A stretch of DNA of 64,000 bases from an uncultured Alphaproteobacteria bacterium. Its GTDB lineage: Bacteria; Pseudomonadota; Alphaproteobacteria; Rhodobacterales; Rhodobacteraceae. The notes beneath the pieces were generated by a model. That model was not told the DNA's origin. It made no database searches and saw only the letters and a program-made list of their open reading frames with translations. Location: NCBI GenBank assembly GCA_963799455.1, contig CAWCXF010000007.1, positions 99,221 through 163,220 on the forward strand, written 5' to 3'. The translations under genes were made by a program, and so were the position numbers. Positions 8,508 to 50,529 of this stretch are shown here, piece by piece. The first letter of the stretch is position 1. Every line of letters starts with the position of its first letter.

Positions 8508-8611
8508 TTGCGCCCTATATACGAACGGGCCCCCCGATGGGGAGCCCGCTTGTGCCAGCTTGTGGCGATTCGATTAGCGTGCGCCCGCTTGAACAGCGGA
8601 CGATCACCGTG

Positions 8612-23881: not shown

Positions 23882-24634
23882 GTGTTCATGTCCGATTTAG
23901 CCGATGCAGTGGGGACTGCCATCGAAGGAGGACTCGTTTCGAGCGCGGTCGAGCGGGAAACAGGCCAAGGCTCTGGCGGCTCCGGCAAGGAACTGAACCG
24001 GGGGCATTTCGATGAGGGAGAGTGCCTGAATTGCGGCGCGTCCCTGGTCGGCAGCCATTGCCATCAGTGCGGCCAAAAGGCGCACCTTCACCGCACAATC
24101 GGCGCTTTCGCCCATGACCTGTTGCACGGCGCGCTGCATCTGGACGGCAAAATGTGGTCCACACTGCCGTTGCTCGCATTCAAACCGGGAAAGCTGACCC
24201 GTCGCTATATCGACGGCGAGCGAGCCAAATTCGTCTCGCCCATGGCGATGTTCTTGTTCTCGATCTTTCTCATGTTTGCCGTCTTTCAGGTCGCCGGCAT
24301 CAGCACACCGACAAATTTGGAGAGAACGACAAAGACCGCGGTAGCGAAGCAAATCCAGTCAGAAATTGCCGAAGTTGAGGAGCGGCGCGAGGCGCTACGC
24401 GCAGAACTGGCCGGCGAAGACCTCGATGATGAGCGTCGGCGCGCGGCTCAGCAGGAACTTGTCGAGATCGAAGAGGAATTGGCCGCTATCGAGACTGCCA
24501 CGCGCAACGTTTCATTCTTCGAGGAATTTCGGACGTCGGAGACCGCTGGATCAGAACCGACCGCGATGTCTACGGATGCGGAATCGACCCTGGCTGGCGC
24601 TGACCAGGTTCCCAGCAGCGAGAATGAGTTCTGA
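23882..24634 (+). CDS. DUF3667-type protein, N-terminal part (zinc ribbon, TM helix, coiled coil)
   Basis: CLNCG...CHQCGQK zinc ribbon plus a single transmembrane helix. Confidence 0.5.
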   Translation: MFMSDLADAVGTAIEGGLVSSAVERETGQGSGGSGKELNRGHFDEGECLNCGASLVGSHCHQCGQKAHLHRTIGAFAHDLLHGALHLDGKMWSTLPLLAFKPGKLTRRYIDGERAKFVSPMAMFLFSIFLMFAVFQVAGISTPTNLERTTKTAVAKQIQSEIAEVEERREALRAELAGEDLDDERRRAAQQELVEIEEELAAIETATRNVSFFEEFRTSETAGSEPTAMSTDAESTLAGADQVPSSENEF

Positions 24635-25136
24635 CGAGGGTGAAACCGGCTCAACCATTCCCATCAGGACGAGCGATGGCGGCAAATATGACGTCACCTT
24701 TGGCGGCTCGCAGTGGGTCGAAGGCGGGATCGATAAATGGCGCGAAAATCCCAGCCTCATGCTCTACAAATTGCAGGCAAATTTTTACAAGTTCAGTTGG
24801 CTATTGATCCCGATATCCATCCCGTTCGTATGGTCGCTGTTCTTGTGGAAGCGGCAGTTTAAAGCCTACGATCACGCGATTTTCGTGACCTATTCGTTGG
24901 GTTTTATCACCCTGCTGACACTCGCGATTGTGGTGGCGACCTTGCTCGGAATGCCAACGGTGATCGTGGTTCTTGCTTCGCTATTCATCCCGCCCCTGCA
25001 CCTGTACAAGCAGTTGCGCGGAACTTACGGTCTGTCGCGATGGAAGGCCTCGTGGCGTCTGCTCGTGCTGACGATCTTCATCATCGTCATACTTGCCATT
25101 TTCAGCTGGCTACTGCTGATGGTTGGAATGTTCTGA
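24613..25136 (+). CDS. DUF3667-type protein, C-terminal polytopic part (possibly the same gene after a frameshift)
   Basis: Overlapping ORF starting at ATG 24613; 3-4 transmembrane helices. Confidence 0.45.
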
Positions 25137-25516: not shown

Positions 25517-26930
<1,414 letters not shown>

Positions 26931-26934
26931 CGTT

Positions 26935-28035
26935 CGGCGCTTCGGCGGGGTCGAGGGAGTGCACGGAGTGCCCGAGGGCGGGACCGTTGACCTTCATGAA
27001 CGACGAGCCCCAAGCGGTTGGCGACGTACTCCATGAGCGTCGTCTTTCCGTAGCCGGGAGGCGAGATGAGCAACAGCAAACCCATCAAGTCCGTGCGCTT
27101 CTCATTGCCGGCGGCGCCGATCTGCTTGGCCAAGTTGTCCCCCACCAGCGGCAGGTAGACTTCGTTTACGAGGCGGTTGCGCACAAACGCGCTCATCACC
27201 TTCGGGCGAACTCTTCGAGACGGAGCGTTTCACGCGTGCGTGTGAGCAGCTCATGTCGAACGCTTCGGTACGCTTTGTACGCGGGAACTCGTCCACTCTT
27301 GAACCGGCTCAGCCGCGCCGAAATTCATCGAGTCGAATCACGAGTGATTGGTCGGTGATTCGTCCGTGCTGGCCAAGCAGCCCTTCGACCTTGAGGGTGG
27401 TCAGTGCATCGCTCGGTGTGTCTGTCCAGCTTGTCGGTCAAGGAGCAGCGCGGTCGCTTCCGTCGCCGAATGCGCGCGTCGGGCTGCCTCCTCGCCGCCC
27501 TTGCGCACGAACCCGTCGATCCATGCCCGGCACAGTGCCGCCTGCGCGGAGAGTGAGTCCGCCAGAGCTTCCACATCCTCTTCAAACGCGCGACGGCTGC
27601 CCGCGCTCTTAGGGCCGCCAAGAACTCATCCCGGAGCCACACCGCGTCACGGCTGGTGCAGAAGCGCGTGCTTCCTTCCGCCAGCTCTTGCGCGAGATAG
27701 TGCCCCGCAACCTCGGCGTCTTGCGCGCTGAAGTCCAGCGCGTGCTCCGTACGAAACCTGTCGATGCTCTTCCCCACTCTTCGCCGAGCCGAAGCTGCTC
27801 CTTTGCTGCGCCAAACGCCTTTTCAAGACGGCCGAAACTCGCTCCACGCCGCTGCAGCGACTCTCGGTCTTCGAGCCGTGACCAGTAGATCCACGCCAGC
27901 GAACGTGCGCTCGACGCGTACCGGAGAAGCCCGCCCGACTCCCGCGCCAGCAAGAGCCGGTCGAGGATGCGCGCCGCGTCCGCGTCGTGGACGCCGCCCT
28001 CGTAGCCCTCGTCGTAGCGCGCGGCGGCGACCTTG
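26935..28035 (-). pseudogene. 3' region of the giant coiled-coil ATPase gene: protein-like in all three minus frames in turn, includes the P-loop module, cut off at the junction
   Basis: Frame switches among ORFs 27609..27953, 27325..27777, an unlisted frame, and 27199 downward. The last carries [52 protein letters not shown], then [13 protein letters not shown] in yet another frame. Confidence 0.6.
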
Positions 28036-30934
28036 CTACAAGCTTGACGAGCCCACCCTCGCTGCGCTGCGCTCCGCGGAGCGCCGCCATCGAAAGCTCC
28101 GCGTCTGAATCTCCGTCGCCGGACTCCGCATCGTATAGAATCGTCGCCGCCAAGTACTCGGCGCGATAGACGTCTTCGCTCTCCGACACGAGCTGCTGCG
28201 ACCAGAGAGGCTTTGTCGCGGCGAACGCTGCGTCGTCGACCGTCTCGTAGAAGTCCGTTCCCGTCAGGTGAAACGCAAGGTCATCGCCCCGCGGCACCAA
28301 CGCCAAGTCGAGCGCCTGCTCGTTCACGCTGAAGCGATGTGTGCCTAGCTTGATGAGGTTGCCCTCTTCGAAGAGCTCGAGGCGGTCGCGCAAACCACGA
28401 ATGGAGTCGTGGCGGATCGCTTTGAGACGCGCCTCGACATCGTCGGCTTTCACCGAGTCGCCAAGCTCGCGCAAGCTCTCCACGAGCTGCCGCAGCTTCA
28501 TCACCATAGGGTCGGCGGCCAGATACGAGTTCAGTTCATCGGCGCTGGTCATCGTGCGAGAGCGCCGCTCGACGCCGTCGACGATCCGGCCTGCCGCCTT
28601 CATCAGGTTTTCGGCGCGGCGTTGCTGTGCTTCCACCAGGGTTTGACGCTTCGCACTAAACGCGTCGTAGATCTCTTCGCGCTTGGCGGCGATCTCCTCG
28701 AGGAAGTCGTCGAACTCCGAGAAGCGCGCCTCGAGCTCCTCGAGTTGCACCATCAGACGCGCGCGCTCTTCGTCTACGCGGTCCGGCGCCTGGGCCATGG
28801 AGAGAGCGCTCGTGACGCTCTGCGCCAGTAGGCTCAGCTGCGCAGCAAACTCCGCGCCGCCCTCTGTCTTCATCAGCGCGCGACGCTTTTGCGTCAGCGC
28901 CGCGCGGAGCTGGTTCAGCTGCGCGAAGACTTGGCTGATGGTCTCCAGAATCGACGTCCTCGAGGTGGCGTCATCGACCTCAAGCCCTGACACCACTTCG
29001 CTGATGAGCGCTAAGCCTTCGCTGACCTCCTCGGCGCGTTTGATGAGCGGATTGATTTCCGCGACGCGAGTGACTTCCTCCGAAGCACGCAGGCACTCGC
29101 TGAGCTCCTTCGTGATAGGCGCAAACGCGTCATCCCCGAGCAAGAATCGAACGCAGTCCCGGCTGACGCGGTCGAACTGCTCGATGACCTGCTCTTCGCG
29201 AGCCTCCAGCGCCTCGCCGTCGATGTAGCGCGTGTCTTTGAGCGTGATGAGCTGCCCGCGCTGTCGACGGAGCGCGCTCAAGAGCGCCATGTATTCGCTG
29301 GCGGAACGACCACTACTGGCTTCGACCTGCTGCGTCAGCTCGTCGTGGGCAGCGGCGGCTTCCGCGAGGACGGAGGCCGCATGAGAGCGAAGCGCGAGAA
29401 CCTTCTCGTACTCATCGACGACCTGCTCCGCCGTCTGGCGAACGTCGCCGAGAACCTTGAGGAGATCGATCTCGTCGTTACCAAGCCAGTAGTACGCGTC
29501 CATAAAGGACGACACGTTCTCGCTGAGCTCGTCGAAGGTGCGCCGCTCTGGATTCGGCTGCTCGATGAGACGCTTGAGGCTGTACGCCTCCGAGATGCCG
29601 CGAACGAGTTCGGCGTTTCCAACCTTGGCGAGGAACGATCCGTCCGTCGGTGCCGCGGCTGCGTGCTCCGCGCTGAAGAAGGGCGTCCGCCACACCTGCA
29701 TCGGGTGAACCCGCGAGGGTTCATCACTCAGCGCTTTGAAGACGAGCATCTCGCCGTTGTCAAAGATCGAGTAACCGTGGCACTGAATCGGAGCCTGAGA
29801 TTCTTTACGAATCATATTGTAGGGAAGCAGCTCGTAGCGACCTTCGTCTGCTCGGTGAAAGACATAGAGAACGTCTTCGCCGTTGGGCGACTTGATCACT
29901 TGCGTCAACTCCAGGCCTTCACGGGCCGCGTCGAAGATCTTCGATTCGCCGGTCTGAAGGTAGTAGCCCCCGGGGAAGATGATCCCGTGGTCTTCGGGCA
30001 GCTGCCGACACGCTTGCCCGATGGCGTCGATGCGCTGCACCTTGTGTGAGCGCGTGTTGAACACCAGGTAGCGCCACGTTTCCTCGCGGAAAGGACGGAT
30101 CTTGAGGAGGATCAAACCGCCGAGCTGCGCGTAGAAGAACTCCCCGTCGTCGAGGGTTTGGTTTACATCGTCGACGGTCTCGGCATAGACGCCGCGACCC
30201 GTCTCGGTGTTGTTCTCGACCTTGATCGTGAGGTCGCCACCGGTGGTCTCGACAAAGCAGCGGTCAAGAATCGATAGATGCGGGTAGCGGCCAGGAACCT
30301 GGTCGTCTCGCGTCGTCGAGGTCCACTGGAAGTCATAGCGATTCGGCAAGACATCGTCGATGTCGCCACGGCTGTCCATGTACGTAAGCTTGCCATCCGG
30401 GTGTTCCTTCCAGCGAAATACACGGACTTCCTCCGTCGTCGCGCCGGTCTGAAAGACCGCGAGCAAACGCCCATTGACCTTGCGAATCCGAAGCAGTCGC
30501 GTCTGGTCGTAGTAGCGGTAGAGCTCTTGGAAATCCTTTTCGAAAGCTTGGTCGGCCAAAAAGGCGTCGCCGAAGTCGCGAGACAGAGCGCTGAGGTCGT
30601 AGCCGCTCTCCGTTTTGTCGAACTGATGAAGGCTGAACACGTCGGAGACGACGGTTTCCTTCTTCAGTCCAACAAAGACGTTGTAGCCGAAGAGCACGTT
30701 GCCTTGAATGGCGTGGATATCGCGCGGGACACAGTTGTGCTCCGTACGAATCCGCTCGTTTGCTACGACCTCCAGCTCGGTGCCGCCAAAGACCTCATGC
30801 CGCCTCGCGTTGAGGGCTTCGATCTTGGTGGCGAGCTGCTGGCCTTGGGCGCGGAGCCGCGCGTGGATGACTTCATAGTTGCCACCCTCGAGAGGCTCCG
30901 CCGGCGTGATGCTCTTGTCTGCGCTGTCGGCCAT
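28036..30934 (-). CDS. giant uncharacterized protein: N-terminal globular region (~500 aa) plus long coiled coil; upstream part of a coiled-coil/AAA ATPase
   Basis: 1095-aa ORF (27647..30934) is intact to about 28035. Heptad-rich segments such as EELEARFSEFDDFLEEIAAKREE; start ATG lies 3 nt after the flotillin stop. Confidence 0.7.
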
Positions 30935-30937
30935 CGT

Positions 30938-33064
30938 CTACTTCAGGCCTAGCTTTGAGGCTTGCATGGCAAGCTGTTGGAGCTTCGACTTCGTGCCGTC
31001 ATCGGCCCCGCTCATCATCTGCGCCAAGAGCGCGCTGATGCTCAGGTTCTTGATGGCTTCGGAGTCGATGGCGGGGTTGCTGAGAACTTCCACCACGTCG
31101 CTCGGCAGTGACTTCTCGCCGCTGAGATATTCCCCAAGGACAGCTCGAGCCGTCTCGCTGTTGTTGACGAGTTCGTCCGCAGACTGACCAAGAGTGACCG
31201 CCTTCATGAAGCGGTCGAAGAACTCTCCGTCGCCACCGACGATGTTGATCTTGGCGGCGCCCATCGCCTGGGCCATCACGCTGGCCTGGCTCGCGGCGAT
31301 GTGTTGGCGTACCCCGATCTCCTTGAGCTTCACTTCCTTCTCCATCTCGAGTCGGATGCGGAACTCCTCATGCTCGCGGCCTACGCCGTCCAGAGCCTTC
31401 ATCGCGTTGGCCTTCTCGGCGAGGCCGGCGGCCTCCGCGACAAGCTTCTTTTCGATGGTGTTGGCCTCGGCCATGCCGCGCTTCTCGACGGCTTGGGCGT
31501 GGGCTTCTTCCACGCGCGCTTCCGACAGGCCCTGGGCTTCGCGACCCACAGCTTCGGCGTTCATCTTCTCACGGACGACGACGGCGTTCGCCATTCCTTC
31601 CTTCTCCGCCACCGAAGCGGCGGCGTCACGAACGCGGACGGCGGCGAGGCCTTCCTTCTCGATGGCGACGGCGTTGGCTTCTTTGACGCGCACCTGGGCA
31701 AGCCCAGCGGCGGCCTGTTCAGCCTGGGTTCCTTCGGCCTGGCGAATCTTCGCCCGGGCCGACTTGTCGGCGGCTTCCAGCTCAGCGTCGGCCACGGTGA
31801 GCATTTCCTTCGCCTTGAGGCGAGAGACTTGCTCGTTGGCTTCGGCGGCTTTCACAGTCTTCAGGAGAGCTTCGTCGGCGACGCCTTCGGCGTTGATGAC
31901 GGTGGCTTCCTTGTTTCGCTTCGCTTCGGCGAGGAGACGCAGGTCCTTGATGCGCTCTTCTTCCTCGGCGACGGTCTTGTCGACGACGATTCGGCCGCGG
32001 ACCACATCGGCGATCTCTCGCTTCTGCACCTCGACTTCCTTGTTCTTGCTGATGAGCTGAAGCTCCGTCTCGCGCTGGCGGCTGATCTCTTCGATCATGC
32101 GTGCCTTCTCCACGCGCTCCGTCTCCACGGCGATCTCTCGCTCGCGGTTCTTCTGGGCGATGGCGACGCCACGTTGCTTCGCCTCGTCGGCGACGAGCAC
32201 CTCTTCTTCGTGCTTGGCGCGCAGCAGCATGGTTTGCTTATTCTCTTGGTCTCGAACACGCATTGCTTCGTTCTCTTCGCGGGACTGAGCCACGGAGATC
32301 TCGCGTTGCTTCTTCGCCTCGGCGGCGGCGCGTCGTTGGTCGAACTGGAAGATCGCTTCGTCCGCGGCCAGGTCTTGGCTGCCCATCTCCATGCGCTCTT
32401 TCTGGCGGAGCTCGTTGGTCTCCACCTTGGAGGCTGCGGTGATCTCGGTAATCTTGCGAATGCCGTGGGCATCAAGGATGTTCTCGGGGTCCAGGTGCTC
32501 AAGAGGCGTCTGCTCGAGGTAGTCGATGGCCGCATCGTTCAAGGTGTAGCCGTCCAGGTCATCGCCGATAACCTCGACGATGTTCTTTCGGAAGTCCGCG
32601 CGCTTCGTGTAGAGGTCGGCGAAGTCGAACTGCTTTCCAACGGTCTTCAACGCTTCGCTGAACTTGGCGTTGAAGAGGTGGTCGATGGCGGTGATGTCCG
32701 ACGCGCGAACGCAGCCCAAGAGACGCGCGACTTTGAGCACGTCTTCCGGTTCTTTGTTCACCTGGACGAAGAAGGTCACGCGAATGTCCGCGCGAATGTT
32801 GTCGCGACAGATGAGGCCGTCCTTGCCGCGACGATCGATATCGATGGTCTTGACGGAGATGTCCATGACCTCCGCGCGATGAAGAACGGGGTACACCACC
32901 ATGCCGGTGAAGGTGACCTTCGGTTCGCCGCTCATGGTGTTGACGATGAGCGCTTTGCCTTGGTCCACCTTTCGGTAGAAGCGGGCGATCATCGTCAGGA
33001 CGCCCACGATGAGCACGAATGCGATTCCTACGCCGATAAGCCACGGTACTGCTTGTTCAAACAT
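30938..33064 (-). CDS. flotillin-family SPFH protein (YqiK-like)
   Basis: N-terminal transmembrane helix, SPFH/band 7 domain (KALIVN...VKTIDIDRRG) and a very long E/A/K/R-rich coiled coil. Start ATG at 33064 preceded by AAGGA. Confidence 0.85.
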   Translation of the reverse strand: MFEQAVPWLIGVGIAFVLIVGVLTMIARFYRKVDQGKALIVNTMSGEPKVTFTGMVVYPVLHRAEVMDISVKTIDIDRRGKDGLICRDNIRADIRVTFFVQVNKEPEDVLKVARLLGCVRASDITAIDHLFNAKFSEALKTVGKQFDFADLYTKRADFRKNIVEVIGDDLDGYTLNDAAIDYLEQTPLEHLDPENILDAHGIRKITEITAASKVETNELRQKERMEMGSQDLAADEAIFQFDQRRAAAEAKKQREISVAQSREENEAMRVRDQENKQTMLLRAKHEEEVLVADEAKQRGVAIAQKNREREIAVETERVEKARMIEEISRQRETELQLISKNKEVEVQKREIADVVRGRIVVDKTVAEEEERIKDLRLLAEAKRNKEATVINAEGVADEALLKTVKAAEANEQVSRLKAKEMLTVADAELEAADKSARAKIRQAEGTQAEQAAAGLAQVRVKEANAVAIEKEGLAAVRVRDAAASVAEKEGMANAVVVREKMNAEAVGREAQGLSEARVEEAHAQAVEKRGMAEANTIEKKLVAEAAGLAEKANAMKALDGVGREHEEFRIRLEMEKEVKLKEIGVRQHIAASQASVMAQAMGAAKINIVGGDGEFFDRFMKAVTLGQSADELVNNSETARAVLGEYLSGEKSLPSDVVEVLSNPAIDSEAIKNLSISALLAQMMSGADDGTKSKLQQLAMQASKLGLK

Positions 33065-33267
33065 TGATTTCCTTCTTCTCTCTACTGCGCAAGAGCGCGA
33101 ACCGGACCTGCGGACATCGCCGGCCTCCTTCCCAAACCCTGGTCGCCGAACAAAATCCGACGCGCCGAAGTGGACCATGGATGGTGCACCTTGTGGGGTT
33201 TGAGTTGGCCCAAGGTGTGTTCCCCCCGATAAACATCTACGGGGATTGAATGGTCTCAAATCCCGCT

Positions 33268-33969
33268 TCAGCGTTCGGCTTCGAGGAGCGCGTCCATAAG
33301 CTCCACTTCGTAGAGATCGGCCTCGGCGTCGTAGTCCAAAAGCAGCACTTTGGCGTTCTTGATCAGCGCCGCGTCACTGCAGCGAACGCGCAGGAGGCTT
33401 CCGGAACCGTCGTCGAGAGTCGCCTGTCCTCGGCCGCCGGCGTCCGCATGTATCTTGACGCGCGCGACCTTGCCGACGAGCACCCGCTTGCTGGGGGCGT
33501 CATTGGATGCGAACACGCGCCCAAGGGGCGTGCTGGCAACTGCCGCCATGGGCCACGCGATGGCGGTGGACAGCCCGAGGACAGCGACGTTGCCAACGAG
33601 CTCAGGCCCTGGGATGAGGCCCGAGTAGCCAGAGAGTCCGTAGCAGACCGCCCAGCCAAAGAAGAAAAGCAGGCTCAATCCTACGGTGAGTGGCGCCTTT
33701 CGGAGACTCAAGATGCTGGAGAGCGAGGACGCGCCTCCAATCCCGATGTCGTCCCCGACCTCGCCCGCGTCGCCCGCGTCCATCTCGCCGACGTCGCCGC
33801 CGACGTCTCCGGCAATGTCCATGTCGATATCACCCACGTCGCCATCGACGCCAAAGTCCAAGTCGAGCGCGCCGAACATGACAAGCATCCAGTAGCAGAG
33901 CGAAAACAGGACACCGACGGTGAAAACAAGTGTCGGAAAGGCGAAGGCGGTGGCGACGAACTGCTCCAT
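33268..33969 (-). CDS. NfeD/YqiJ-like membrane protein, partner of flotillin (start may be 34080)
   Basis: Transmembrane helices, an acidic DxD-rich segment, and a C-terminal beta-rich OB-fold-like tail (VGKVARVKIHADAGGRGQATLDDGSGSLLRVRC). Confidence 0.6.
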   Translation of the reverse strand: MEQFVATAFAFPTLVFTVGVLFSLCYWMLVMFGALDLDFGVDGDVGDIDMDIAGDVGGDVGEMDAGDAGEVGDDIGIGGASSLSSILSLRKAPLTVGLSLLFFFGWAVCYGLSGYSGLIPGPELVGNVAVLGLSTAIAWPMAAVASTPLGRVFASNDAPSKRVLVGKVARVKIHADAGGRGQATLDDGSGSLLRVRCSDAALIKNAKVLLLDYDAEADLYEVELMDALLEAER

Positions 33970-34160
33970 GTCGGAGCAAAGTGGCACGACCGGTCCAAAG
34001 TAGATAGTGGGATAGGCAGAGGACGAATCCCGTGGGGAGGACTCCGCACCGCCGAGCGCTTTTGCGACTGGCACATTCAAGTCAGGAGGGGGGCGAGCTC
34101 GCGGGCGAGGGCCGCGAGCACAGGGTCAAAACTTGTCTGTCGGGGCACTCGTGCGGCGCA

Positions 34161-36542
34161 CTAGAAGCTCTCGCCGAGGGCGATGTGGATCGCGCCGGGG
34201 AATCCGAAGAAGGTATCTTGGACCCCTTCGTTGTCGCCGGTCATGCGTGGATCATCACCGAAGACTTGCAGGCTGGGTGGCGCCCAGCCGACGTCGAGGC
34301 GGATGGCCCCGACGATGGTGTAATAGCGGAGGCCCATGCCGAAGCTGAACTGCGGGACGTTGAACCGCCACTCTTCGGCGGACACGTCGCCGGCGTCGCC
34401 AAACGCCACGATGCCGAAGCTCTCGGTGACGCGGAGTCGAAGCTCCGCGCTCGCGAGCCACTTGCGGTTGCCGCCGCTCCGTCCGTCTCCGAGGCGTCCG
34501 GGCAAGTAGCCGCGTACGTCCGTCGAGCCGCCGCCGTAGAAGCGCTGGTCGCGTGGGCCGAGCAGTGTGCTCTCTTCGTCGAGGCCTTCGTCTGGGTCGG
34601 AGATGAGCATTGCGCCGAGGACGAAACGCCCGGCGAGGGTCAGTCGTCTCCCGAAAGGCACGTACGCGCGGATGTCCGGGACGACGCGTATGTAGTCGAA
34701 CGTAGACGGCAGAAAGTAGCCGCCCTCCTGGAGGTCCACCTGAAAAAAGAACCCCTTCGTCGGACGCACGTTGTCGTCGCGGAAATCGAAGCGGAGAATC
34801 TGCTGAAGGTACGTGATGTGGTAGTTGCTTGGAGGTGCGGAGTCGTCTTCGCGGAGTTCACCGTCCGGGACGTGGTAGTAAGAGAAGCGCGGCAGCCCGA
34901 TGGCAGCGAAGATCTTTCTCTCTAGAAAGAAGCGCTCAAGTCCCAGGCCCACGTCGACGCGATGGCGAAAGAAGATGTCGTACGGGTCGCGGCCGAAGTC
35001 GTGCTGTGCATCGATGGTGAACGTAAGATTGGGCTCCAAGAATCCGGGCTGTCGAAACTCGGCGCTGATGAGATTGCCAAGGCGCGGCTCGTCCACCGTC
35101 GGGAAGCGGTCACCGAAGATCAGACGTGGCGTCTCGCGTAGAATCAGCCGGCGAAGACCGCCGAGCATGTTGCGGTTCTCGTAGGTCACCGAAGCGTGCA
35201 CGTCCCACTGGTCGACGCTGTTGACCTCGCCGAATCGCCCGCGATTCTCGACACCGCTGAGGATGCCCAGGCCCAGGGAGTAGCGGTGATGGCGCGCTGG
35301 GGTGACGCGGATGCGAACGTCCACGACCTCTCCTTCGCCGGTGAGGATGGGTTCGGCGACGACGCCGGAGAATCCGCCGAGGCCATAGACGAGGCGCTGC
35401 CCTTCGCGGATTTGCGAGCGGTCGTAGCGCATGCCCGGCTCCAGCTGACTGGCCGCGATGACGACATCTTTGGGGATGTTGTCTGGGCCCTCCACTTGGA
35501 TCTCTCCGTACACGCACACTGGACCTGGATTGAGCTCAAGCACGATGTGAGCTTCCCGCCCGGGTCGGTCGATTCGTACGCGTCCGTCGACGCGCGCCCG
35601 CGCATGGCCGGCTCGGAACATGATGCCTTCGAGGACGTCCTTCGATTTGTCGTAGCGCTGCTCGTCCCAACGGTCTCCGACGTTGAGTTTGAGCCCTTCG
35701 CGCATCTGCCTGGCCATGCGCTCGGACATCTCCTCGATGCCGACGATCTCCAGGGTCCTCACAAGGGTGGGCTCTCCTTCCTCGATCACGAATCGGACGT
35801 CGACGGCGCAGCCTTCGTCGTCGTCGATGCGCTCACAGGGGGCTTCGTCGACTTGGGGTGTTCCGTTTCCGTTTCCGTTTCCGTTTCGGTTTCCGTTTCC
35901 GGTTTCGGTTTCGGTTTCGGTTTCGGTTTCGGTTTCGGTTTGGGTTTCGGTTTCGGTTTCGGTTTCGGTTTGGGTTTGGGTTTGGGTTTGGGTTTGGGTT
36001 TGGGTTTCGGTTTCGGTTTCGGCGTGATCGTGGCCGTGATCGTCGTCCGAACTCTCACCCGCTTCGTCATCGCCGGCGTTCTCCTCCGCCTCCTCGCTGT
36101 CGTCGTCCTCGCTGACGTCCGGGAGCAAGTCCTCGTCCATCGCGCTCGGTGGCGTTGTCTGCACTTCCACGACGCGCGCGCCATGATACCCGCGCGCCGC
36201 GTACCAGCGTTCGATGCGCTCGACGTCTTGTTCCACCGTGATGCGGTCGAAGTAAGGCCAGTCGGACCAAGGCCAGGTCCAGAGGTTGAGCCGTCGAACG
36301 TCTCCTTCAAACGGCGGCTCTCCGCACGATGTGCTTTCGTCGAGGTCCAAGTTAATTTGGACGCGGTCACGTGCCTGCGTGGCGAGGCAGACTCGGATCG
36401 CGTCCCGGTCGAAGGACTCCACTCCGTCGAACTCCAGAGTTCGGACACCGTAGCGGGTCGGCGGAATGCTCGCGCAACCCGCGAGGACGACTAGCAGCCA
36501 TCCCCATCTCAACGTTCGACCGCAACTGCTTAGGGCTCCCAT
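34161..36542 (-). CDS. tamA: TamA-like Omp85-family outer-membrane assembly protein with a low-complexity insert
   Basis: Signal/lipobox, POTRA-like repeats, C-terminal surface-antigen beta-barrel ending in F. Adjacent to tamB with a 13-nt overlap. Confidence 0.75.
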   Translation of the reverse strand: MGALSSCGRTLRWGWLLVVLAGCASIPPTRYGVRTLEFDGVESFDRDAIRVCLATQARDRVQINLDLDESTSCGEPPFEGDVRRLNLWTWPWSDWPYFDRITVEQDVERIERWYAARGYHGARVVEVQTTPPSAMDEDLLPDVSEDDDSEEAEENAGDDEAGESSDDDHGHDHAETETETQTQTQTQTQTQTETETETETQTETETETETETETGNGNRNGNGNGNGTPQVDEAPCERIDDDEGCAVDVRFVIEEGEPTLVRTLEIVGIEEMSERMARQMREGLKLNVGDRWDEQRYDKSKDVLEGIMFRAGHARARVDGRVRIDRPGREAHIVLELNPGPVCVYGEIQVEGPDNIPKDVVIAASQLEPGMRYDRSQIREGQRLVYGLGGFSGVVAEPILTGEGEVVDVRIRVTPARHHRYSLGLGILSGVENRGRFGEVNSVDQWDVHASVTYENRNMLGGLRRLILRETPRLIFGDRFPTVDEPRLGNLISAEFRQPGFLEPNLTFTIDAQHDFGRDPYDIFFRHRVDVGLGLERFFLERKIFAAIGLPRFSYYHVPDGELREDDSAPPSNYHITYLQQILRFDFRDDNVRPTKGFFFQVDLQEGGYFLPSTFDYIRVVPDIRAYVPFGRRLTLAGRFVLGAMLISDPDEGLDEESTLLGPRDQRFYGGGSTDVRGYLPGRLGDGRSGGNRKWLASAELRLRVTESFGIVAFGDAGDVSAEEWRFNVPQFSFGMGLRYYTIVGAIRLDVGWAPPSLQVFGDDPRMTGDNEGVQDTFFGFPGAIHIALGESF
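35860..36022. repeat. hexanucleotide microsatellite (GTTTCG/GTTTGG/GTTTCC)n inside tamA, encoding (ET)n(QT)n and (GN)n on the minus strand
   Basis: Seen directly: about 27 near-perfect hexamer units. Confidence 0.9.
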
Positions 36543-39500
36543 CGAAGCTCCAGTCCCCAGGTGTTTCCTTGCTGGTAGCGGGTGTTCAGAAGCAGGCTGT
36601 AGGGGAAGAGGAGCTCAAGCTCCACGCCGCCGGCGAATGAGCCGCCGGCGCCCTCGTTGCTTTGACCGCCGACGTAGCCTTCGATGTGCGCGCCGATGAC
36701 GACGTCGCTGAGAAAATCGGGGATCAACCGGTCGGCCTGAATCGCTGCGCGAAGTCGGGCTCCCGTCGCATTGGACTCGATCCCGAATACCGGAATGTAC
36801 TCGCCGAGTTCGCGTCGGGTGAGACTGCTGAGGAGACCGGCGGTGAGGCCTGAGACGAACCCAAGCACCTGGTCGCGCGCTCCCGCGCTGTCATTGCCGC
36901 CGCCGCCGCCGCCGATCAGCAAGGCCAAGATCTCCGCCTCCGTTTCAGCGCTTGGGTCAGACGAAGAGAAGTTGAGCTCCAGCGAGAAGAGGTCCCCGCT
37001 AAGTTGCACGGTGACGGTCTGCTGGTTCGCCAGCTCGTGCACGGCGGTGATGTCGAGGCGTGGGTTGATGCTTCGTCCACCCGAAAAACGGATCTCACTT
37101 CGCTCAAATTCGAACTGCTTGCCAACAATCGAAAGAAAGCCGCGGCGGATGTCGACGGTGCCCTCAAGCCGTACGCCAGAGCTGTCGATAATAGCGATGA
37201 GGTCGGGCTCCACCTGGACGGAAAAGTCATCACGACGCACATAAAACGGATTGGAGGTTAGGTTAATGCGGGTCTCGCTGTCGTCCGCCTCGTCGGCTTC
37301 GTTGGAGACCGTCAACGTTCCTGCGAGGCCAGAGAAACCATCATCGTCTTCGTAGACGACGTCAGGGTGCTGGGAGAGCGATTGGACCTGACGGCCCACG
37401 TCTGGAGAAATCTGGATCGCTGCGTCTCGCAGCCCGACGTCGAACTCACTGACGGGGTCGCCAAACTCACCGGTGATGTCGATCTTCGTATCGAGCGTTG
37501 CGTACACGATACCCTCTAGGCGGAAGGGGAAGTCGTCGAGGACCGCCGTGGCGTCGACGCGACCGAGTTCCCATCCGTCCATTCCCACGTGCCCATTGAC
37601 CAGGATAGTTCCGTCGCGGTCCCGGAAGCGGACGTCGTGCAGGTGAAGTCGGTCATCGTCGAGGGCGACGCGTCCGTTGAGACTCTCGACACGCAGCAGG
37701 GGTTCGCGCAGCGTAAAGCCCACCTCTTCCAGTTCCACGCCACCGCGCACATGGACTTGGCCGGCGTCGTCGCCTCTGGCGCTCACTTCGCCGCTGAGGT
37801 GTCCGCGTGGGGAACCGATGAGGGCGACGGGCGCGGCGAGAATGGCCAGCGGCGCGTGGTTGAAGTTCGCGCGGCCTTGCCAGCCGGCGGTGTCGGGAAG
37901 CGGTAGATGAAGTTCGTCGTCCATGGCCATGGGGACTGAGCCTTCGGCGACGAAGAGCTCGGTCTCGCCGGCCAGGCGCAAAGACACCGTCGCGCGGCTG
38001 GCTGTAGCGTGCGCTTCGATGTTGAAGTCCGCTGGCGGAGTGTGGTCCCGGGCGCTCGTCGATTGAAGTCCAGCGATGGTCCCGCGTAGATCCACCATCG
38101 GCTGGTCGCCAAGGATATCTTGGAGCTGCGCCTCGAGGTTTACTTCCCCAGCGACTTCTGCGCAGACGATGGGGATTCCGTTCATCGGGAGCTCTTGGAT
38201 CGAAAGGTCGGCGTTGATCGCGGGCAGTCGTTCCGGCATCTGAACGACCCAGCTGTCGAGGGGAAGGGGCATGGTGGCGCTGAGCGTGGCGCGCTCTGCG
38301 CCGCCAGTTCGGACGCGACTGTCGAGGTTGAAGGTGCCGTCGTTGAGGCGGCCCTCAAGGGTCATGCGCGTCGCACTGATCGAACAAGAGTCGCCGTCGT
38401 GCTCGCCCGCCACAGGTGGATAGGACACCACCGCCGACACCGTCCCTTCGGCTCCCCCGAGGCTTGAGTTCTGCCCTTGTCCTTGGAAGTGCGCGTTCAG
38501 CCCGACTCGGCCTTCCTGCTCTTCGAGCATCGCGATAGGAAAGTCGCGAAGGCTGCGTTCGGGGATGAGAAGGTCCACCGACCAAGGGTGCTGCAGGATC
38601 TGGCGCGCGTTTTGTTCCCACGCCATTCGGTCGAAGGTGAGCGCGACTCGAACATCGAGCATCGGGGCGGATGCTTCTTTGAGGACAAGACTGCCGAGGA
38701 GATTTCCGTCATCGAGCTCCGATTGAAACTCGACGCGTGGAACCATGAGTTCGAGATCTGGATAGCCGAAGTCATTGACAGCGAGGAAAAGCTCGAAGGC
38801 ACGCGGGTCGATGTATGACCCGGACGAATGCAGCTCCACCCCGAGCGTGCCCGACAGCGCGGGCAGTGATTCGGGGCCGAGGATGACGTTCAGGCTCTCC
38901 CTGAGTGGCTCGAGCTTCGTGCCGCTGAGCTGCACGTGCAAGTCGAGGGGGGCGCGCTGCCAGTCGCCGCTTAGGTCGGCTGAGGGCGCGGTACCCATGA
39001 GCTTGATTTCGACTCTTCCCACGACTTCGCCGAGTGCCTCGACGAGGAGCTCAAGTTCCGCCTTTCCTTCGTTTTGGTTGACGTTTGCGTGCCATTGAAG
39101 CGTCGCGAGTTCCAAGCCTTGGTACTTCACAGAGGTCAGGGACCCCTCCGAGTGAAGGGCGGGCCGGGCGATGGATCCATGGAACTCGCCCGTGGCTGCA
39201 ACGGTCCCTTCGATGGGAACTTCTAAGAGGTCCCCGAGCGGTTCGAGGTTCGCGTGATCGACGTCGAAGGAAAAGTCCGAGCGTCCGCGAAATGAGACGC
39301 GGCCGCGCATCGTTGCGCCGAGCACGTTCGGCGCACGGACGGCGAGGGCGCCGACGGAGAAGCTGTTTTCGCCAAGGGCGAAGCGCTGGATGTCGATGGT
39401 GACGGGCTGCGGAAAAAGCCCCCGCGCGCGAACGTTGCCCGTGGCCTGGACGCCGTCTTCGATGCCAAGCTGGGTGTCCACGTCGACGACAAGAGCCCGA

Positions 39501-41224
39501 TCGACGAACTGCGCGGGGCCCTCGACGCGGCCTCGAATCCGGTAAGGCCCGTCGCCCGCGGCGCTGAGATCGACGCGCGTCAGATCGATGCCGTAGAGCG
39601 TCGCTTGCCCCGTACGAACGTGCGCATCCAGGCGTGGGGCGCTGACGGGTCCGCTGGCGCTCGCGCGGACCGTCGCTTCGGCGACGCGGACGTCTTGCAT
39701 TCGAAAGCCGCGGACGTTGACGTCGGCGCGTGCGTCGAGGACGTCGTCCCGCAGAGAGACCTCCGCTTCGATTCGCGCACGTCCCCCGACGCCCGGGAGG
39801 AGCATCGCGAGCGAGGGTTGCGCAGAGAGCCTCGGTAGGTCGGCATCGACGTTCAGCGAGAGGTCACCGTCGAAGCCGTATCGTCCGCGGATGTCCATGT
39901 GTCCACCTTCGGAGAGCGCAGGCAAATCCAGCCGGCTCAGAACGACCGCGTCTTCGGTGATCGTCGCGTCGGCGATGAGTCGCTCGACTTCCCACGTGTC
40001 GTAGGCGATGTCCTCGCCGCGGACCTGAATGTCCCAGCCCGACGCGGATTCAGCGGCGCTGACGTTCAGGTCAAACTGCACGGCGCCAGCGACGCCGAGG
40101 TCGGCGGCCAAAGCCTCGGCCAGGTTAAGGCCAGGGGTTCGAAGCGCGAGGTTCGCCTGCAGCGGTCCCGAAAGATCGACGGACCCATCAAGCGCGAGTT
40201 CGCCCCCAGGCGGCCGGAGCGACCCTTCGAAGTTGAGGGCATCGAAGGGGCTATATTCCTCCGTGGGCGCGTCGCTCTCCGCCGAACGGACGTCTAGCCC
40301 GATCTCCGTGGGACCGCCGAGGAGGTCTTGGCCGGTAAACGGCGTGAGCATCGCGTTGGTCAGAACGCCCTCGACCCGAGCATCGAGAGCCCCGAGGGTG
40401 TCGTTCACCCACGGCAGCGACGCGCTCACATCGAGGTGGCCGTCTTCCGTGGCGAGGCGCAAAGACGCGTCCATCGAGCCGCCATCACGCAGCGCCGCAT
40501 CATAGGTGAGCCCGCTGAGAGCCACGTAGGGCTGTCCGTTTAGAACGATGCTGGCGCTCTCGCGTTCCTGAACCGCGGCCTCGGCGTCGCGCGGGTTTCC
40601 GTTCTGTGTGCCGTGGATTTCGACGGACTCTCCTTCGACCTCGATGCGAAGGTCGAGGTCAAGGTCGCTCACCTGCACGTCGATCCCAGGAACGTCGTGG
40701 ACCGATGCGTCGCTCACCGCGCCGGTCACCCTCATGACGAACGTCGACGGCGCCGGGTCCGGCGGTGATGGTTCCGCGGGCAAGAACGCTTGGGAGATCC
40801 TAAGTCCGCCCTCGGCGTCGGTGGAAAGCGAAATTCGGGGCGATTGAACGACCACATCGCTCAGCAAGAGCTCTCCGCCGATCAGCGGGAAAATCGCCGC
40901 GGAGGCGCTCGCTCTTTCGACGTCGACCACGTGCACGCCCTCCGCGTCCGTGAGCTCGATGGACGCAAGTTCCGCCGTCACGGACATGAGGCGGACGTCG
41001 ATGTCGACGCACTGAAAGTCCATGGAGCCGGCGATGGCGTCGTTGCCGAGATCACGGCCCAAGGAGCAGATGACCTCGCGAGCGGGGTTGCTGTTCAGGT
41101 GGATCAGCACGCTCGTGACGAGGCAAAAGATCGCCAACAGAAGCCCCAGGAGCGTGCGCAGAACACCCTTCAGCACACGTACGCCGATAACGGACGCCTT
41201 CGACTTGTCTTGTTGGGTGCTCAC
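36530..41224 (-). CDS. tamB: translocation and assembly module protein TamB (AsmA-like, DUF490 C-terminus)
   Basis: 1564 aa, N-terminal transmembrane anchor, long beta-rich repetitive body, and the characteristic C-terminal DUF490 region. Confidence 0.8.
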   Translation of the reverse strand: MSTQQDKSKASVIGVRVLKGVLRTLLGLLLAIFCLVTSVLIHLNSNPAREVICSLGRDLGNDAIAGSMDFQCVDIDVRLMSVTAELASIELTDAEGVHVVDVERASASAAIFPLIGGELLLSDVVVQSPRISLSTDAEGGLRISQAFLPAEPSPPDPAPSTFVMRVTGAVSDASVHDVPGIDVQVSDLDLDLRIEVEGESVEIHGTQNGNPRDAEAAVQERESASIVLNGQPYVALSGLTYDAALRDGGSMDASLRLATEDGHLDVSASLPWVNDTLGALDARVEGVLTNAMLTPFTGQDLLGGPTEIGLDVRSAESDAPTEEYSPFDALNFEGSLRPPGGELALDGSVDLSGPLQANLALRTPGLNLAEALAADLGVAGAVQFDLNVSAAESASGWDIQVRGEDIAYDTWEVERLIADATITEDAVVLSRLDLPALSEGGHMDIRGRYGFDGDLSLNVDADLPRLSAQPSLAMLLPGVGGRARIEAEVSLRDDVLDARADVNVRGFRMQDVRVAEATVRASASGPVSAPRLDAHVRTGQATLYGIDLTRVDLSAAGDGPYRIRGRVEGPAQFVDRALVVDVDTQLGIEDGVQATGNVRARGLFPQPVTIDIQRFALGENSFSVGALAVRAPNVLGATMRGRVSFRGRSDFSFDVDHANLEPLGDLLEVPIEGTVAATGEFHGSIARPALHSEGSLTSVKYQGLELATLQWHANVNQNEGKAELELLVEALGEVVGRVEIKLMGTAPSADLSGDWQRAPLDLHVQLSGTKLEPLRESLNVILGPESLPALSGTLGVELHSSGSYIDPRAFELFLAVNDFGYPDLELMVPRVEFQSELDDGNLLGSLVLKEASAPMLDVRVALTFDRMAWEQNARQILQHPWSVDLLIPERSLRDFPIAMLEEQEGRVGLNAHFQGQGQNSSLGGAEGTVSAVVSYPPVAGEHDGDSCSISATRMTLEGRLNDGTFNLDSRVRTGGAERATLSATMPLPLDSWVVQMPERLPAINADLSIQELPMNGIPIVCAEVAGEVNLEAQLQDILGDQPMVDLRGTIAGLQSTSARDHTPPADFNIEAHATASRATVSLRLAGETELFVAEGSVPMAMDDELHLPLPDTAGWQGRANFNHAPLAILAAPVALIGSPRGHLSGEVSARGDDAGQVHVRGGVELEEVGFTLREPLLRVESLNGRVALDDDRLHLHDVRFRDRDGTILVNGHVGMDGWELGRVDATAVLDDFPFRLEGIVYATLDTKIDITGEFGDPVSEFDVGLRDAAIQISPDVGRQVQSLSQHPDVVYEDDDGFSGLAGTLTVSNEADEADDSETRINLTSNPFYVRRDDFSVQVEPDLIAIIDSSGVRLEGTVDIRRGFLSIVGKQFEFERSEIRFSGGRSINPRLDITAVHELANQQTVTVQLSGDLFSLELNFSSSDPSAETEAEILALLIGGGGGGNDSAGARDQVLGFVSGLTAGLLSSLTRRELGEYIPVFGIESNATGARLRAAIQADRLIPDFLSDVVIGAHIEGYVGGQSNEGAGGSFAGGVELELLFPYSLLLNTRYQQGNTWGLELRWEP

Positions 41225-46254: not shown

Positions 46255-46300
46255 GGGGCCGGTAACTCATTGGTAGAGTACTAGACTTTTAATCTAATCA
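46255..46300 (+). pseudogene. tRNA-Lys(UUU) 5'-half fragment; 3' T-arm replaced by unrelated sequence
   Basis: GGGGCCGGTAACTCATTGGTAGAGTACTAGACTTTTAATCTAATCAC resembles bacterial tRNA-Lys (acceptor, D-arm, CUUUUAA loop) but lacks a TTCGA T-loop. Confidence 0.4.
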
Positions 46301-46428
46301 CGACGGTCTGGCCCTCCGCAAAGGGGCCTCCTTGAGACTCCGTTCCTTCGTGGGGTCGCTCCGGCGGCACAGGCGAACAGAACAAGCGCGGCTGCATTCG
46401 CCTCCGCATCTCCCTGGCCAAGGTAGTC

Positions 46429-47748: not shown

Positions 47749-47796
47749 GTCGTGAAGAGCCGAGGCTGCACGAAGGTGTGGCCTCGGCGCCCTTCA

Positions 47797-47843
47797 TCAA
47801 TGTTCATTTAGGGACGGACGTAAAATGAACCTCCGTCGTCACC
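47797..47843. repeat. repeat element copy A (single-arm form)
   Basis: ttcatttaGGGACGGACGTAAAATGAACCTCcgtcgtca; shared core with copy B. Confidence 0.8.
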
Positions 47844-47882
47844 AAGACCGGGCAAGACGGCGTGAGGTGTGGGCGGATGGAC

Positions 47883-48692
47883 TCAGCGCACCGCGCATTC
47901 CTCCATTCCTAAGGTCGGCACATCTTCCACGATCGAGATTAGGCCGCGCCGGACCGCGGTGCCCCGTAGCTGGATGTAGGAGTGTATGTAGGAGTCGGTT
48001 CCGTCGGCCACGAAACGAGCGCCCAGCTCGAACTCGTCAAGGATCTCGTCATCGGGAAGCGACTCCGAGTAGGAGCGAGAGACTCGGGCGCGCGTGACCC
48101 AATGCCACTCTTCGTCTTCCCAGTCGTCGACCGGGTCGGTGTCGAGGACTAGCCAGGTTCCTTCCCACTCCAGCGACAGCGCGATCGAAACGGATCCGAT
48201 GGGCCACGTGGTGACGGCTTCGTTCGTCGAACGAACGCCGACGCTCGTCGCGCACACCTCGAGCGAGAGTCCGCCGCCAGTGCAGTTGGTGTTTGCGCGC
48301 GCTTCCATATCGATGGCGTGCGCCTCGCCGTCCACCCACGCTACGCCCTCCAGTCGGTACGCTTGCCCTTCGTAGCGCAACTCCATGTCGAAGTCGCGCA
48401 GCTCCACGTCTCTCCACGGATGCATCGCGGACAGACCGTCGGCAATGTACGCCCGTGTCACGGGTTCGGTCCCCCCTTGATAATAGCCGACCTCCGCGAT
48501 CAACCATCGCGAACCGAAGGGCGTGCCAACTCGAACGATGCCGCTGCCGGTGGCGCTTACCAAGCCATCGGAGCAGGCCACCCCGCGCTCCGGTGGATAC
48601 TCGGAGGTCGCACACCCTGCGCCCCCGAAGGCGAGCAGGCAGATACCCAACAACCGCGCGTGGGGAGTCCAGTATGTCGAGAAGGGAAGCAT
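47883..48692 (-). CDS. hypothetical lipoprotein
   Basis: Lipobox LAFGGAGC; acidic W-rich C-terminus. Confidence 0.45.
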   Translation of the reverse strand: MLPFSTYWTPHARLLGICLLAFGGAGCATSEYPPERGVACSDGLVSATGSGIVRVGTPFGSRWLIAEVGYYQGGTEPVTRAYIADGLSAMHPWRDVELRDFDMELRYEGQAYRLEGVAWVDGEAHAIDMEARANTNCTGGGLSLEVCATSVGVRSTNEAVTTWPIGSVSIALSLEWEGTWLVLDTDPVDDWEDEEWHWVTRARVSRSYSESLPDDEILDEFELGARFVADGTDSYIHSYIQLRGTAVRRGLISIVEDVPTLGMEECAVR

Positions 48693-48780
48693 GAGTCAGG
48701 CGGGCCCGAATCAATCCTGATCCGAGCCGGTAAACCTATCAACCCGCGCGTACGACGTCGAGCGCGGCGCTCTTCGTTTG

Positions 48781-48872
48781 AGGAGGTTCATTCGGGGACG
48801 GACGTAAAATGAACCTCGCGAGGTTCATTTTACGTCCGTCCCCGAATGAACCTCCGTCGTGCTTAGGGCATT
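48781..48872. repeat. repeat element copy B: ~64-nt perfect palindrome (30-bp stem, CGCG centre)
   Basis: TTCATTCGGGGACGGACGTAAAATGAACCTC-GCG-AGGTTCATTTTACGTCCGTCCCCGAATGAA followed by CCTCCGTCGT as in copy A. Confidence 0.85.
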
Positions 48873-50453: not shown

Positions 50454-50529
50454 CTTCCCACCTTACCACCTTACCAGAATTCTTCCGGCCGCCGTTTTCT
50501 AGTCATGCAGGCCTGTCACGCAGGCTACT

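Follow-up and report, generated by a model that had tools for sequence, protein, structure and literature searches.

Long-read metagenome assemblers are documented to produce chimeric contigs that join DNA of different phyla, indels that break open reading frames (ORFs) and are not supported by reads, and stretches of zero coverage (bioRxiv 10.1101/2025.04.22.649783). Stretches of zero or low coverage adjoin such assembly errors (10.1101/2025.04.22.649783). At a smaller scale, single-base insertions and deletions that split otherwise intact ORFs in long-read assemblies are described in two further reports (proovframe preprint, 10.1101/2021.08.23.457338; Sereika et al. 2022, PMC9262707).

The locus described here lies in a stretch of 64,000 nt, which was analyzed as a whole and is called the window. 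With the chimeric long-read contigs (10.1101/2025.04.22.649783) the window shares an abrupt change of taxonomy and composition, genes cut at the boundary, and ORF-breaking indels. The diagnostic feature in that study was 100% clipping of reads at the junction, whereas the window was judged from sequence alone.

Two protein families are concerned. The giant DUF3686/DUF7902 ATPases (PF12458, PF25472, PF00004) have ~1770 aa in Polyangiales, where a conserved coiled-coil gene lies upstream, as it does in the window. The window copy agrees with them in the N-terminal domains and the Walker A motif (GYGKT), but as assembled its final 424 residues are absent, and with them most of the AAA domain. FtsH (TIGR01241, ATP-dependent zinc metalloprotease) is present in the window as a fragment that shares the AAA, lid, and M41 domains. 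In contrast to its relatives, which carry PF06480, the fragment lacks this domain. The ~192 residues absent from its N terminus comprise two transmembrane helices and the periplasmic domain.

Eight frame switches in a giant ATPase gene

The ATPase gene occupies the following positions:

28039 to 30934, minus strand: 5' portion of the giant DUF3686/DUF7902 AAA+ ATPase gene, intact and in one frame, with the start at 30934
26899 to 28038, minus strand: zone of frame switches in the same gene, codons ~965 to 1349, with eight private 1-nt indels; stop-free coding sequence once repaired

Pfam analysis assigned the window protein to the family annotated as "DNA repair ATPase" (PF12458, 1.9e-197; PF25472, 3.7e-26), and its 5' part showed 88 to 89% aa identity to homologues from Polyangiales-type metagenome-assembled genomes (MAGs) (P0002 to P0005). 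NCBIfam contained no model matching the giant ATPase, and a literature search found neither a paper mentioning DUF3686 nor an experimental function for the family.

A sequence-only reading had noticed that protein-like translation hops among the three minus-strand frames. Frameshift-aware alignment to an intact homologue (P0003) recovered all the peptides it had quoted, in their order, and the out-of-frame pieces matched the homologue with an E value of 3e-42. That reading had also recommended alignment to the closest intact homologue. The nucleotide sequences of four intact ~1770-aa relatives (L001, L004, L005, and L006) were aligned to the gene with MAFFT, which placed eight 1-nt indels that are private to the window, five of them deletions and three insertions:

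28038, minus strand: indel 1, 1-nt deletion, GTCAGC in the relatives and GT-AGC in the window; the true frame of the 1095-aa ORF ends here
27777, minus strand: indel 2, 1-nt deletion, GAGCTCGG in the relatives and GAG-TGGG in the window
27611, minus strand: indel 3, 1-nt deletion, CCTCGAG in the relatives and CCT-AAG in the window
27443, minus strand: indel 4, 1-nt insertion, GCT-CTTG in the relatives and GCTCCTTG in the window
27417, minus strand: indel 5, 1-nt insertion 26 nt past indel 4, AAC-CCGAG in the relatives and ACACCGAG in the window
27322, minus strand: indel 6, 1-nt deletion, GAGTTCTTGG in the relatives and GAATT-TCGG in the window
27209, minus strand: indel 7, 1-nt deletion, GAGTTCCGC in the relatives and GAGTT-CGC in the window
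27002, minus strand: indel 8, 1-nt insertion, CTCGT-GTTC in the relatives and CTCGTCGTTC in the window

The first count had been "five or more" switches. That there are several was borne out, but the exact number is eight, two pairs being too close together to be spotted by eye. The switches had further been ascribed to the last ~1.1 kb of the gene. They do lie in a zone of 1.15 kb, but this zone is not the end of a complete gene: homology to the ATPase breaks off at 26899, residue 1349 of 1773 being the last one covered, so that the final 424 codons are missing, and a 5'-truncated ftsH gene of another phylum continues in their place, with the GYGKT-containing ORF extending into it. The Walker A motif lies near 27060, and the C-terminal AAA domain and the tail are incomplete as assembled. 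The 424 missing residues were not found within the 64-kb window. The best matches in a wider search, aimed at their counterpart in the same organism, had 59 to 73% identity, a search that did not return the known full-length positives either.

All eight indels fall within the last 1,152 of the 4,036 aligned bases, i.e., 29% of the remnant (p ~4e-5 under a uniform spread), while the alignment to intact homologues revealed no private frameshifting indel in the first 2.9 kb of the gene. The last indel (27002) is ~100 nt from the end of ATPase homology. The indel contexts are runs of one or two bases and not the homopolymers that are the classic nanopore context. A C on the coding strand is involved in six or seven of the eight indels, and both features count against reading them as errors. 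The lack of long homopolymers at the indels does not exclude other error modes.

Every segment of the zone is protein-like and collinear with the homologue, as would be expected if programmed recoding, by ribosomal frameshifting or transcriptional slippage, yielded the full protein. However, at all eight sites a single uninterrupted ORF is present in each of the four close relatives, as it is in thousands of members of the family, the shifts are both +1 and -1 and have no common slippery motif, and the gene is truncated anyway. Furthermore, we know of no precedent for eight such events in 1 kb. The homologue alignment appears effectively to refute recoding, the probability of which we regard as negligible.

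Frameshifts elsewhere in the window

Some 45 kb of other genes in the window were checked for frameshifts by tblastn of relatives' ORFs and by a Pfam search for split domains; a GC3 frame plot across the window did not resolve frameshifts at this GC content. Insertions of 1 nt were detected in two essential genes, yidC (at ~6208) and rnpA (at ~8279). In addition, 1-nt frameshifts split a DUF3667 gene at ~24.6 kb and, on the myxobacterial side, divide a GH43 domain between two frames at ~49.18 kb. We checked yidC and rnpA with the help of a YidC-based metagenome scan, which found only relatives with at most 62% identity and was not used for taxonomy.

These isolated frameshifts in the yidC, rnpA, DUF3667, and GH43 genes show that the assembly is indel-prone in general. 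They resemble the indel-split ORFs of long-read assemblies (10.1101/2021.08.23.457338; PMC9262707). The ATPase zone differs in its dense local clustering of indels, which are not at long homopolymers. The background of four frameshifts in the ~45 kb of other genes checked corresponds to ~1 per 11 kb, and the local density of 8 per 1.15 kb is ~80 times higher. Given this background, the E value of the out-of-frame pieces, and the confinement of the indels to the end of the remnant, the frame switches are far beyond chance.

A switch between two phyla at 26.9 kb

The window is divided as follows:

1 to 26898, no strand: Erythrobacteraceae-like (Alphaproteobacteria) side, with the housekeeping genes nth, engB, yidC, rnpA, comM, dnaB, rpoZ, and ftsH
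26899 to 64000, no strand: Polyangiales-like (Myxococcota) side, according to synteny with contig L001 and homologue taxonomy
26898 to 26903, no strand: Myxococcota-like/Erythrobacteraceae-like junction, located by blastn and sequence comparison
25517 to 26903, minus strand: 5'-truncated ftsH, codons ~193 to 654, with AAA, lid, and M41 peptidase domains (Pfam)
25517 to 27196, minus strand: chimeric 559-aa ORF (P0241), composed of ATPase residues ~1247 to 1315, 35 out-of-frame residues, and FtsH residues 193 to 654

The left side is collinear with an Erythrobacteraceae contig (L007) over 14.5 to 26.9 kb, and homology to this contig and to L002 ends at 26903. On the right side, homology to L001 spans positions 26899 to 41047 only, with a shared gene order of TamB, Omp85, a small ORF, a ~707-aa coiled-coil protein, and the giant ATPase; farther away, the product of a DUF3556 gene at 51.7 kb has 82% identity to that of a Polyangiales MAG. 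The tetranucleotide profile of the left side correlated at 0.87 with an Erythrobacter reference and at 0.53 with a myxobacterial reference, whereas that of the right side correlated at 0.98 with the myxobacterial and at 0.76 with the Erythrobacter reference. In 4-kb windows, the profile flips at 24 to 28 kb. In summary, gene-level taxonomy, composition, and synteny switch abruptly, and both genes at the switch are cut mid-domain.

Since ATPase homology extends down to 26899 and ftsH homology up to 26903, the two overlap at the junction by no more than 5 nt (TCAAC). Repeat, Rfam, and tRNA scans revealed no repeat, IS element, mobile element, integrase, tRNA, or RNA element there. The ftsH fragment matches TIGR01241 profile positions 182 to 598 of 598 and has 95% aa identity to FtsH of Erythrobacter/Qipengyuania. 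Its missing N-terminal half was not found within the window, and frameshift-aware alignment detected no frameshift in the fragment over the 1.4 kb beside the join. Indel 8 happens to bring the reading that follows it into frame with ftsH, and P0241 differs from FtsH by an accidental in-frame fusion to out-of-frame ATPase sequence. As a route to the join, similarity between the AAA+ P-loops was considered and rejected: the join lies ~160 nt past the Walker A motif of the ATPase and ~35 nt before that of FtsH, with the motifs out of register.

The join itself could be real, the window representing one genome with tens of kilobases of DNA from a foreign phylum, and sequencing errors could nonetheless account for the eight indels. 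The short microhomology (TCAAC) fits illegitimate recombination, and errors are present elsewhere in the contig. However, both flanks are core, syntenic chromosome of native composition from two phyla and not an island, and the boundary is devoid of an integrase, an IS element, a tRNA, and repeats. Moreover, both genes are cut mid-domain, which leaves FtsH without its membrane anchor, and a false join with weak support would be expected to show a burst of errors right at the boundary, as is seen here. We therefore consider a real join with sequencing errors very unlikely. It is highly improbable that the junction is genuine in every respect, i.e., that Erythrobacteraceae and Polyangiales DNA came together in one bacterium by illegitimate recombination at 5 nt of microhomology, creating a fusion of an ATPase remnant and an anchorless FtsH, and that the indels arose by an indel-prone mutational process.

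Coding constraint in the zone of frame switches

In comparisons with the four relatives, dN/dS was 0.079 to 0.092 in the zone and 0.073 to 0.091 in the upstream part of the gene. The repaired zone contains no stop codons, its private substitutions keep the third-position bias, and no excess of substitutions was found in it after allowing for the regional rate. The unchanged dN/dS, the absence of stops, and the preserved third-position bias indicate that only indels, and not substitutions, were added to the zone. An origin of the zone from another, more divergent myxobacterial strain was also considered and rejected; the extra nucleotide divergence of the zone is paralleled by higher divergence among the relatives there, and their ranking is similar.

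Pseudogenes of decaying genomes, e.g., those of Mycobacterium leprae or Rickettsia, show several frame disruptions, substitutions, stops, and relaxed dN/dS along their whole length. With these the ATPase gene of the window shares several frame disruptions only; it lacks the build-up of substitutions, the stops, and the relaxed dN/dS. In a genuine pseudogene, the ATPase would have been truncated by a rearrangement or by acquisition across phyla, and its 3' remnant would be decaying by frameshifts. Many frameshifts and a truncation do coincide in this one gene, and the same sequence stands in the deposited record. However, the zone is as constrained as the intact part and stop-free after repair, with no substitution excess once the regional rate is allowed for. 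Neutral decay should strike the whole dead gene, but the eight indels are clustered in less than a third of the remnant (p ~4e-5). The join also truncates the essential ftsH gene amid conserved Erythrobacteraceae synteny, and similar indels occur in the essential genes yidC and rnpA, where they cannot be real. A genuine pseudogene is therefore very unlikely. The recently decayed pseudogene proposed in the sequence-only reading does not agree with the lack of relaxed constraint and of nonsense mutations, or with the limitation of the indels to 1.15 kb beside the join. Its second proposal, densely clustered indel errors close to where contigs were joined, fared better: there is a cross-phylum junction at 26898/26899, and the zone contains 1-nt indels only, over a constrained coding region, from which we infer that they are errors.

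Proposed origin of the junction and the frame switches

Although the sequence does contain the frame switches, they are almost certainly an assembly artefact and not biology. The deposited contig is, with high probability, a cross-phylum assembly chimera with a poorly supported consensus beside a false join, as suggested by its sequence features. The false join would connect Erythrobacteraceae DNA (1 to 26898) with Polyangiales-like myxobacterial DNA (26899 to 64000), ending the ATPase gene at codon 1349 of ~1773 and leaving ftsH only from codon ~193 onward. The eight switches would represent uncorrected single-base consensus errors, of the kind found in long reads, in the ~1.15 kb leading into the join. 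This zone may have been carried by very few reads, perhaps by a single chimeric read; alternatively, its reads may have been recruited to another contig with the true continuation. Either way, polishing would have left the zone uncorrected. Since the 1.4 kb of ftsH beside the join are clean, low quality is confined to one side of it, and the low-coverage idea must be stretched to accommodate this. A difference in error rate between the two sides, expected as a sign of unequal coverage, was weakened as an argument by the GH43 frameshift on the myxobacterial side.

If the contig is such a chimera, the truncation of the ATPase would be a property of the assembly and not of the organism's gene, which is most likely one intact ORF of ~1770 codons. 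The locus then has no biological importance, the organism most likely having an ordinary DUF3686 ATPase gene, and its value is in quality control. A burst of 1-nt indels together with normal dN/dS and a nearby switch of taxonomy and k-mer profile could serve as a cheap, read-free flag for misassembly.

Occurrence in public records

By exact look-up, P0241 was found in public protein collections on the same 1,741,513-bp contig as P0001, P0256, and P0257. The presence of the broken and chimeric ORFs on this public 1.74-Mb contig shows that the junction is in the deposited record. A 37-nt pattern across the junction had no match in the GTDB genome set. The contig appears to join two phyla, and any bin that includes it would combine genes of Erythrobacteraceae with those of Polyangiales. 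Among the entries already in public collections are an "ATPase" of 1095 aa that ends in a nonsense tail and the ATPase/FtsH hybrid of 559 aa, which falls into a cluster with real FtsH; both of these probable artefacts can mislead analyses of domain architecture, pseudogenes, and gene transfer.

Two truncated genes meet at a junction between phyla

The giant minus-strand gene starting at 30934 belongs to the uncharacterized DUF3686/DUF7902 AAA+ family, for which a literature search found no paper and NCBIfam has no model. Pfam analysis of its 1095-aa ORF (P0001; 27647-30934) revealed DUF3686 (PF12458, E = 1.9e-197) and DUF7902 (PF25472). The closest proteins in a 5.8-billion-sequence collection are 1767 to 1773 aa long, share 88-89% identity, and originate from Polyangiales/Myxococcota metagenome bins; their C-terminal AAA domain is absent from the 1095-aa ORF. 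Using blastn, homology to L001, a locus with an intact relative, was detected from 41047 down to exactly 26899. There the gene is cut at residue 1349 of 1773 ("...QEVEKIN"), and thus 424 residues are absent.

Directly beyond, from 26903 downward on the same strand, lies ftsH, an essential gene. Its homology to two Erythrobacteraceae contigs (L002 and L007; blastn) spans 25517-26903 and begins at codon ~193. The fragment is an ordinary FtsH, 95% identical to that of Erythrobacter/Qipengyuania, with the AAA, lid and M41 domains (Pfam), and covers only positions 182-598 of the 598-position model TIGR01241.

Genes and ORFs at the junction (26898/26899)
30934 to about 26900, minus strand: giant "DNA repair ATPase" family member (Pfam and homologues)
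25517-27196, minus strand: hybrid ATPase/FtsH ORF, 559 aa (ORF call)

The sequence across the junction is ...GAGAAGATCAAC/GGTTCTCGAAGCTT..., and the two sides share five bases at most (TCAAC). Repeats, IS elements and tRNAs were not found at this point, and neither missing half was found elsewhere in the window. By chance, the frame shift at the last of the indels listed below (indel 8) opens the 559-aa ORF, which begins in ATPase sequence, crosses 35 residues that are out of frame and continues as FtsH. The exact 1095-aa and 559-aa ORFs, the TamB-like protein from the right and YidC from the left are carried by one 1,741,513-bp NCBI/ENA contig; therefore, the junction belongs to the deposited assembly.

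Alphaproteobacterial housekeeping genes occupy the left side (nth, engB, yidC, rnpA, comM, dnaB, rpoZ and a UPF0262 gene), and 14.5-26.9 kb is collinear with L007. To the right, the order TamB, Omp85, small ORF, ~707-aa coiled-coil protein and giant ATPase is the same in L001, and the DUF3556 gene (51.7 kb) matches a Polyangiales MAG at 82% identity, its next matches being other Myxococcota. Tetranucleotide correlations to the Erythrobacter and myxobacterial references were 0.87 versus 0.53 on the left and 0.76 versus 0.98 on the right (including 41-64 kb, the part without homology to the references), and the switch coincides with the junction. A real inter-phylum junction is contradicted: both flanks are core, syntenic and of native composition, both genes are cut mid-domain, one of them being ftsH, and there is no mobile-element signature. 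Most likely, the contig is a cross-phylum misassembly.

Eight indels without signs of decay

Frameshift-aware alignment of the intact homologue P0003 to the window required eight changes of frame, and the repaired reading was free of stop codons. Nucleotide-level comparison with four intact genes (L001, L004, L005 and L006; MAFFT) showed each change to be a single-base indel private to the window.

Single-base indels in the minus-strand ATPase gene (MAFFT alignment)
28038, deletion, 1 nt
27777, deletion, 1 nt
27611, deletion, 1 nt
27443, insertion, 1 nt
27417, insertion, 1 nt
27322, deletion, 1 nt
27209, deletion, 1 nt
27002, insertion, 1 nt (indel 8)

On the coding strand, most of the eight involve a C, and long homopolymers contain none of them. 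Over its first 2.9 kb the gene is free of frameshifting indels; all eight fall in the last 1152 bases of the 4.0-kb remnant (p about 4e-5 if uniform). The sequence-only reading had announced five or more frame switches within the gene's last ~1.1 kb. Its quoted peptides were all recovered, correctly ordered and alternating between frames, and the switches are located there; the gene's end is not, since 424 residues are missing past 26899.

Elsewhere in the window, about four isolated single-base frameshifts were detected in the ~45 kb checked.

Background frameshifts
5951-7750, minus strand: yidC, +1 nt at ~6208 (AGCCAG to AGCCCAG)
~8177-8552, minus strand: rnpA (RNase P protein), +1 nt at ~8279 (GCAGAC to GCAGGAC), split between two frames
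23888-25136, plus strand: DUF3667 gene adjoining ftsH, split into ORFs 23882-24634 and 24366-25136, which overlap but differ in frame
48863-50453, minus strand: GH43 glycoside hydrolase on the myxobacterial side, shift at ~49181-49186

Both yidC and rnpA are essential. The last ~70 YidC residues, highly conserved in relatives, are in another frame (5992-6204), and the 599-aa ORF, with its nonsense tail, matches Pfam 60KD_IMP only to position 118 of 163; the extra base is almost certainly a sequencing error. The DUF3667 shift (within 24460-24690, near 24.6 kb) falls in an acidic linker with little conservation, which prevents exact placement; either an error or a genuine split may underlie it. 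Of the GH43 Pfam profile, ORF 49080-50453 covers positions 1-193 and ORF 48863-49339, in another frame, positions 192-288. Against this background, about 0.1 frameshifts are expected per 1.15 kb, and eight have a Poisson probability of the order of 1e-13.

With indels repaired, dN/dS against each of the four relatives was 0.079-0.092 in the indel-bearing zone (26899-28038) and 0.073-0.091 upstream. Window-private substitutions, counted at sites invariant in the relatives, favoured third positions five- to six-fold in the zone and upstream alike; their rate was roughly two-fold higher in the zone, as mirrored in the relatives' own lineages. The zone thus has indels without signs of decay: no substitution excess, nonsense codon or relaxed constraint was detectable. 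A recently decayed pseudogene, one option of the sequence-only reading, is contradicted by the similar dN/dS, the lack of stops and the indel clustering. Programmed frameshifting is excluded, since every relative has one uninterrupted ORF across all eight sites and shifts of both directions occur. As judged from sequence, the pattern is that of uncorrected long-read consensus errors, unlike a decaying pseudogene. The other option, dense indel errors near a contig join, is supported: a cross-phylum junction follows the zone, and constraint is intact after repair.

A probable assembly artefact of a known kind

The error-dense kilobase is probably a weakly supported stretch leading into the false join. 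It might stem from the end of one chimeric read; alternatively, its genuine reads may have been recruited to another contig with the true continuation, so that polishing would have left it uncorrected. The switch between phyla, the indels and the preserved selective signature are seen in the sequence itself; low read support as the cause of the errors is inferred. The clean ftsH side of the join and the lack of homopolymer association fit this account less neatly, and it leaves the C bias unexplained.

The error classes are exactly those documented in a survey of long-read metagenome assemblers: contigs joining different phyla, ORF-breaking indels without any read support, and coverage-free stretches whose reads map to duplicate contigs (bioRxiv 10.1101/2025.04.22.649783). 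The pattern is almost certainly an assembly artefact of a familiar type, with nothing biologically new in it. In practice it serves as a warning to split the contig at 26898/26899 and re-polish the region. P0241, the accidental 559-aa hybrid, has already been placed in a public cluster of FtsH proteins (90% identity), and P0001, whose last 129 residues are out of frame, is publicly listed as a singleton. Both are database contamination by assembly artefacts, and such propagated chimeric proteins should be treated as spurious.

Additional features of the myxobacterial side

Upstream of the ATPase gene, gene order is conserved in Polyangiales relatives (L001, L004 and L006).

Gene order at 30938-41224 and the ATPase gene, minus strand
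TamB-like protein, 1564 aa
Omp85/POTRA protein, 793 aa
small ORF
coiled-coil protein
giant ATPase

The coiled-coil protein (~707-773 aa) is 94% identical to that of L001 and has no Pfam hit. The ATPase gene starts 4 nt past it, and this tight pairing suggests a functional pair. Compared to its L001 orthologue, the Omp85-family gene carries a ~75-residue in-frame insertion (35855-36114, minus strand) between the latter's residues 103 and 115.

ARAGORN detected no tRNA in the window. Rfam gave a weak tRNA match of 60 nt at 46256-46315 on the plus strand (36.7 bits, E = 4.7e-4), with an SPFH/Band 7 gene immediately downstream; it may be a degenerate remnant or a chance hit. Finally, ~47750-50480 is without counterpart in L008, the closest Polyangiales relative, which is otherwise collinear over 40.4-56.1 kb, and it is at 48-52 kb that tetranucleotide usage agrees least with the myxobacterial references (0.74); the segment may be a lineage-specific insertion including the GH43 gene.
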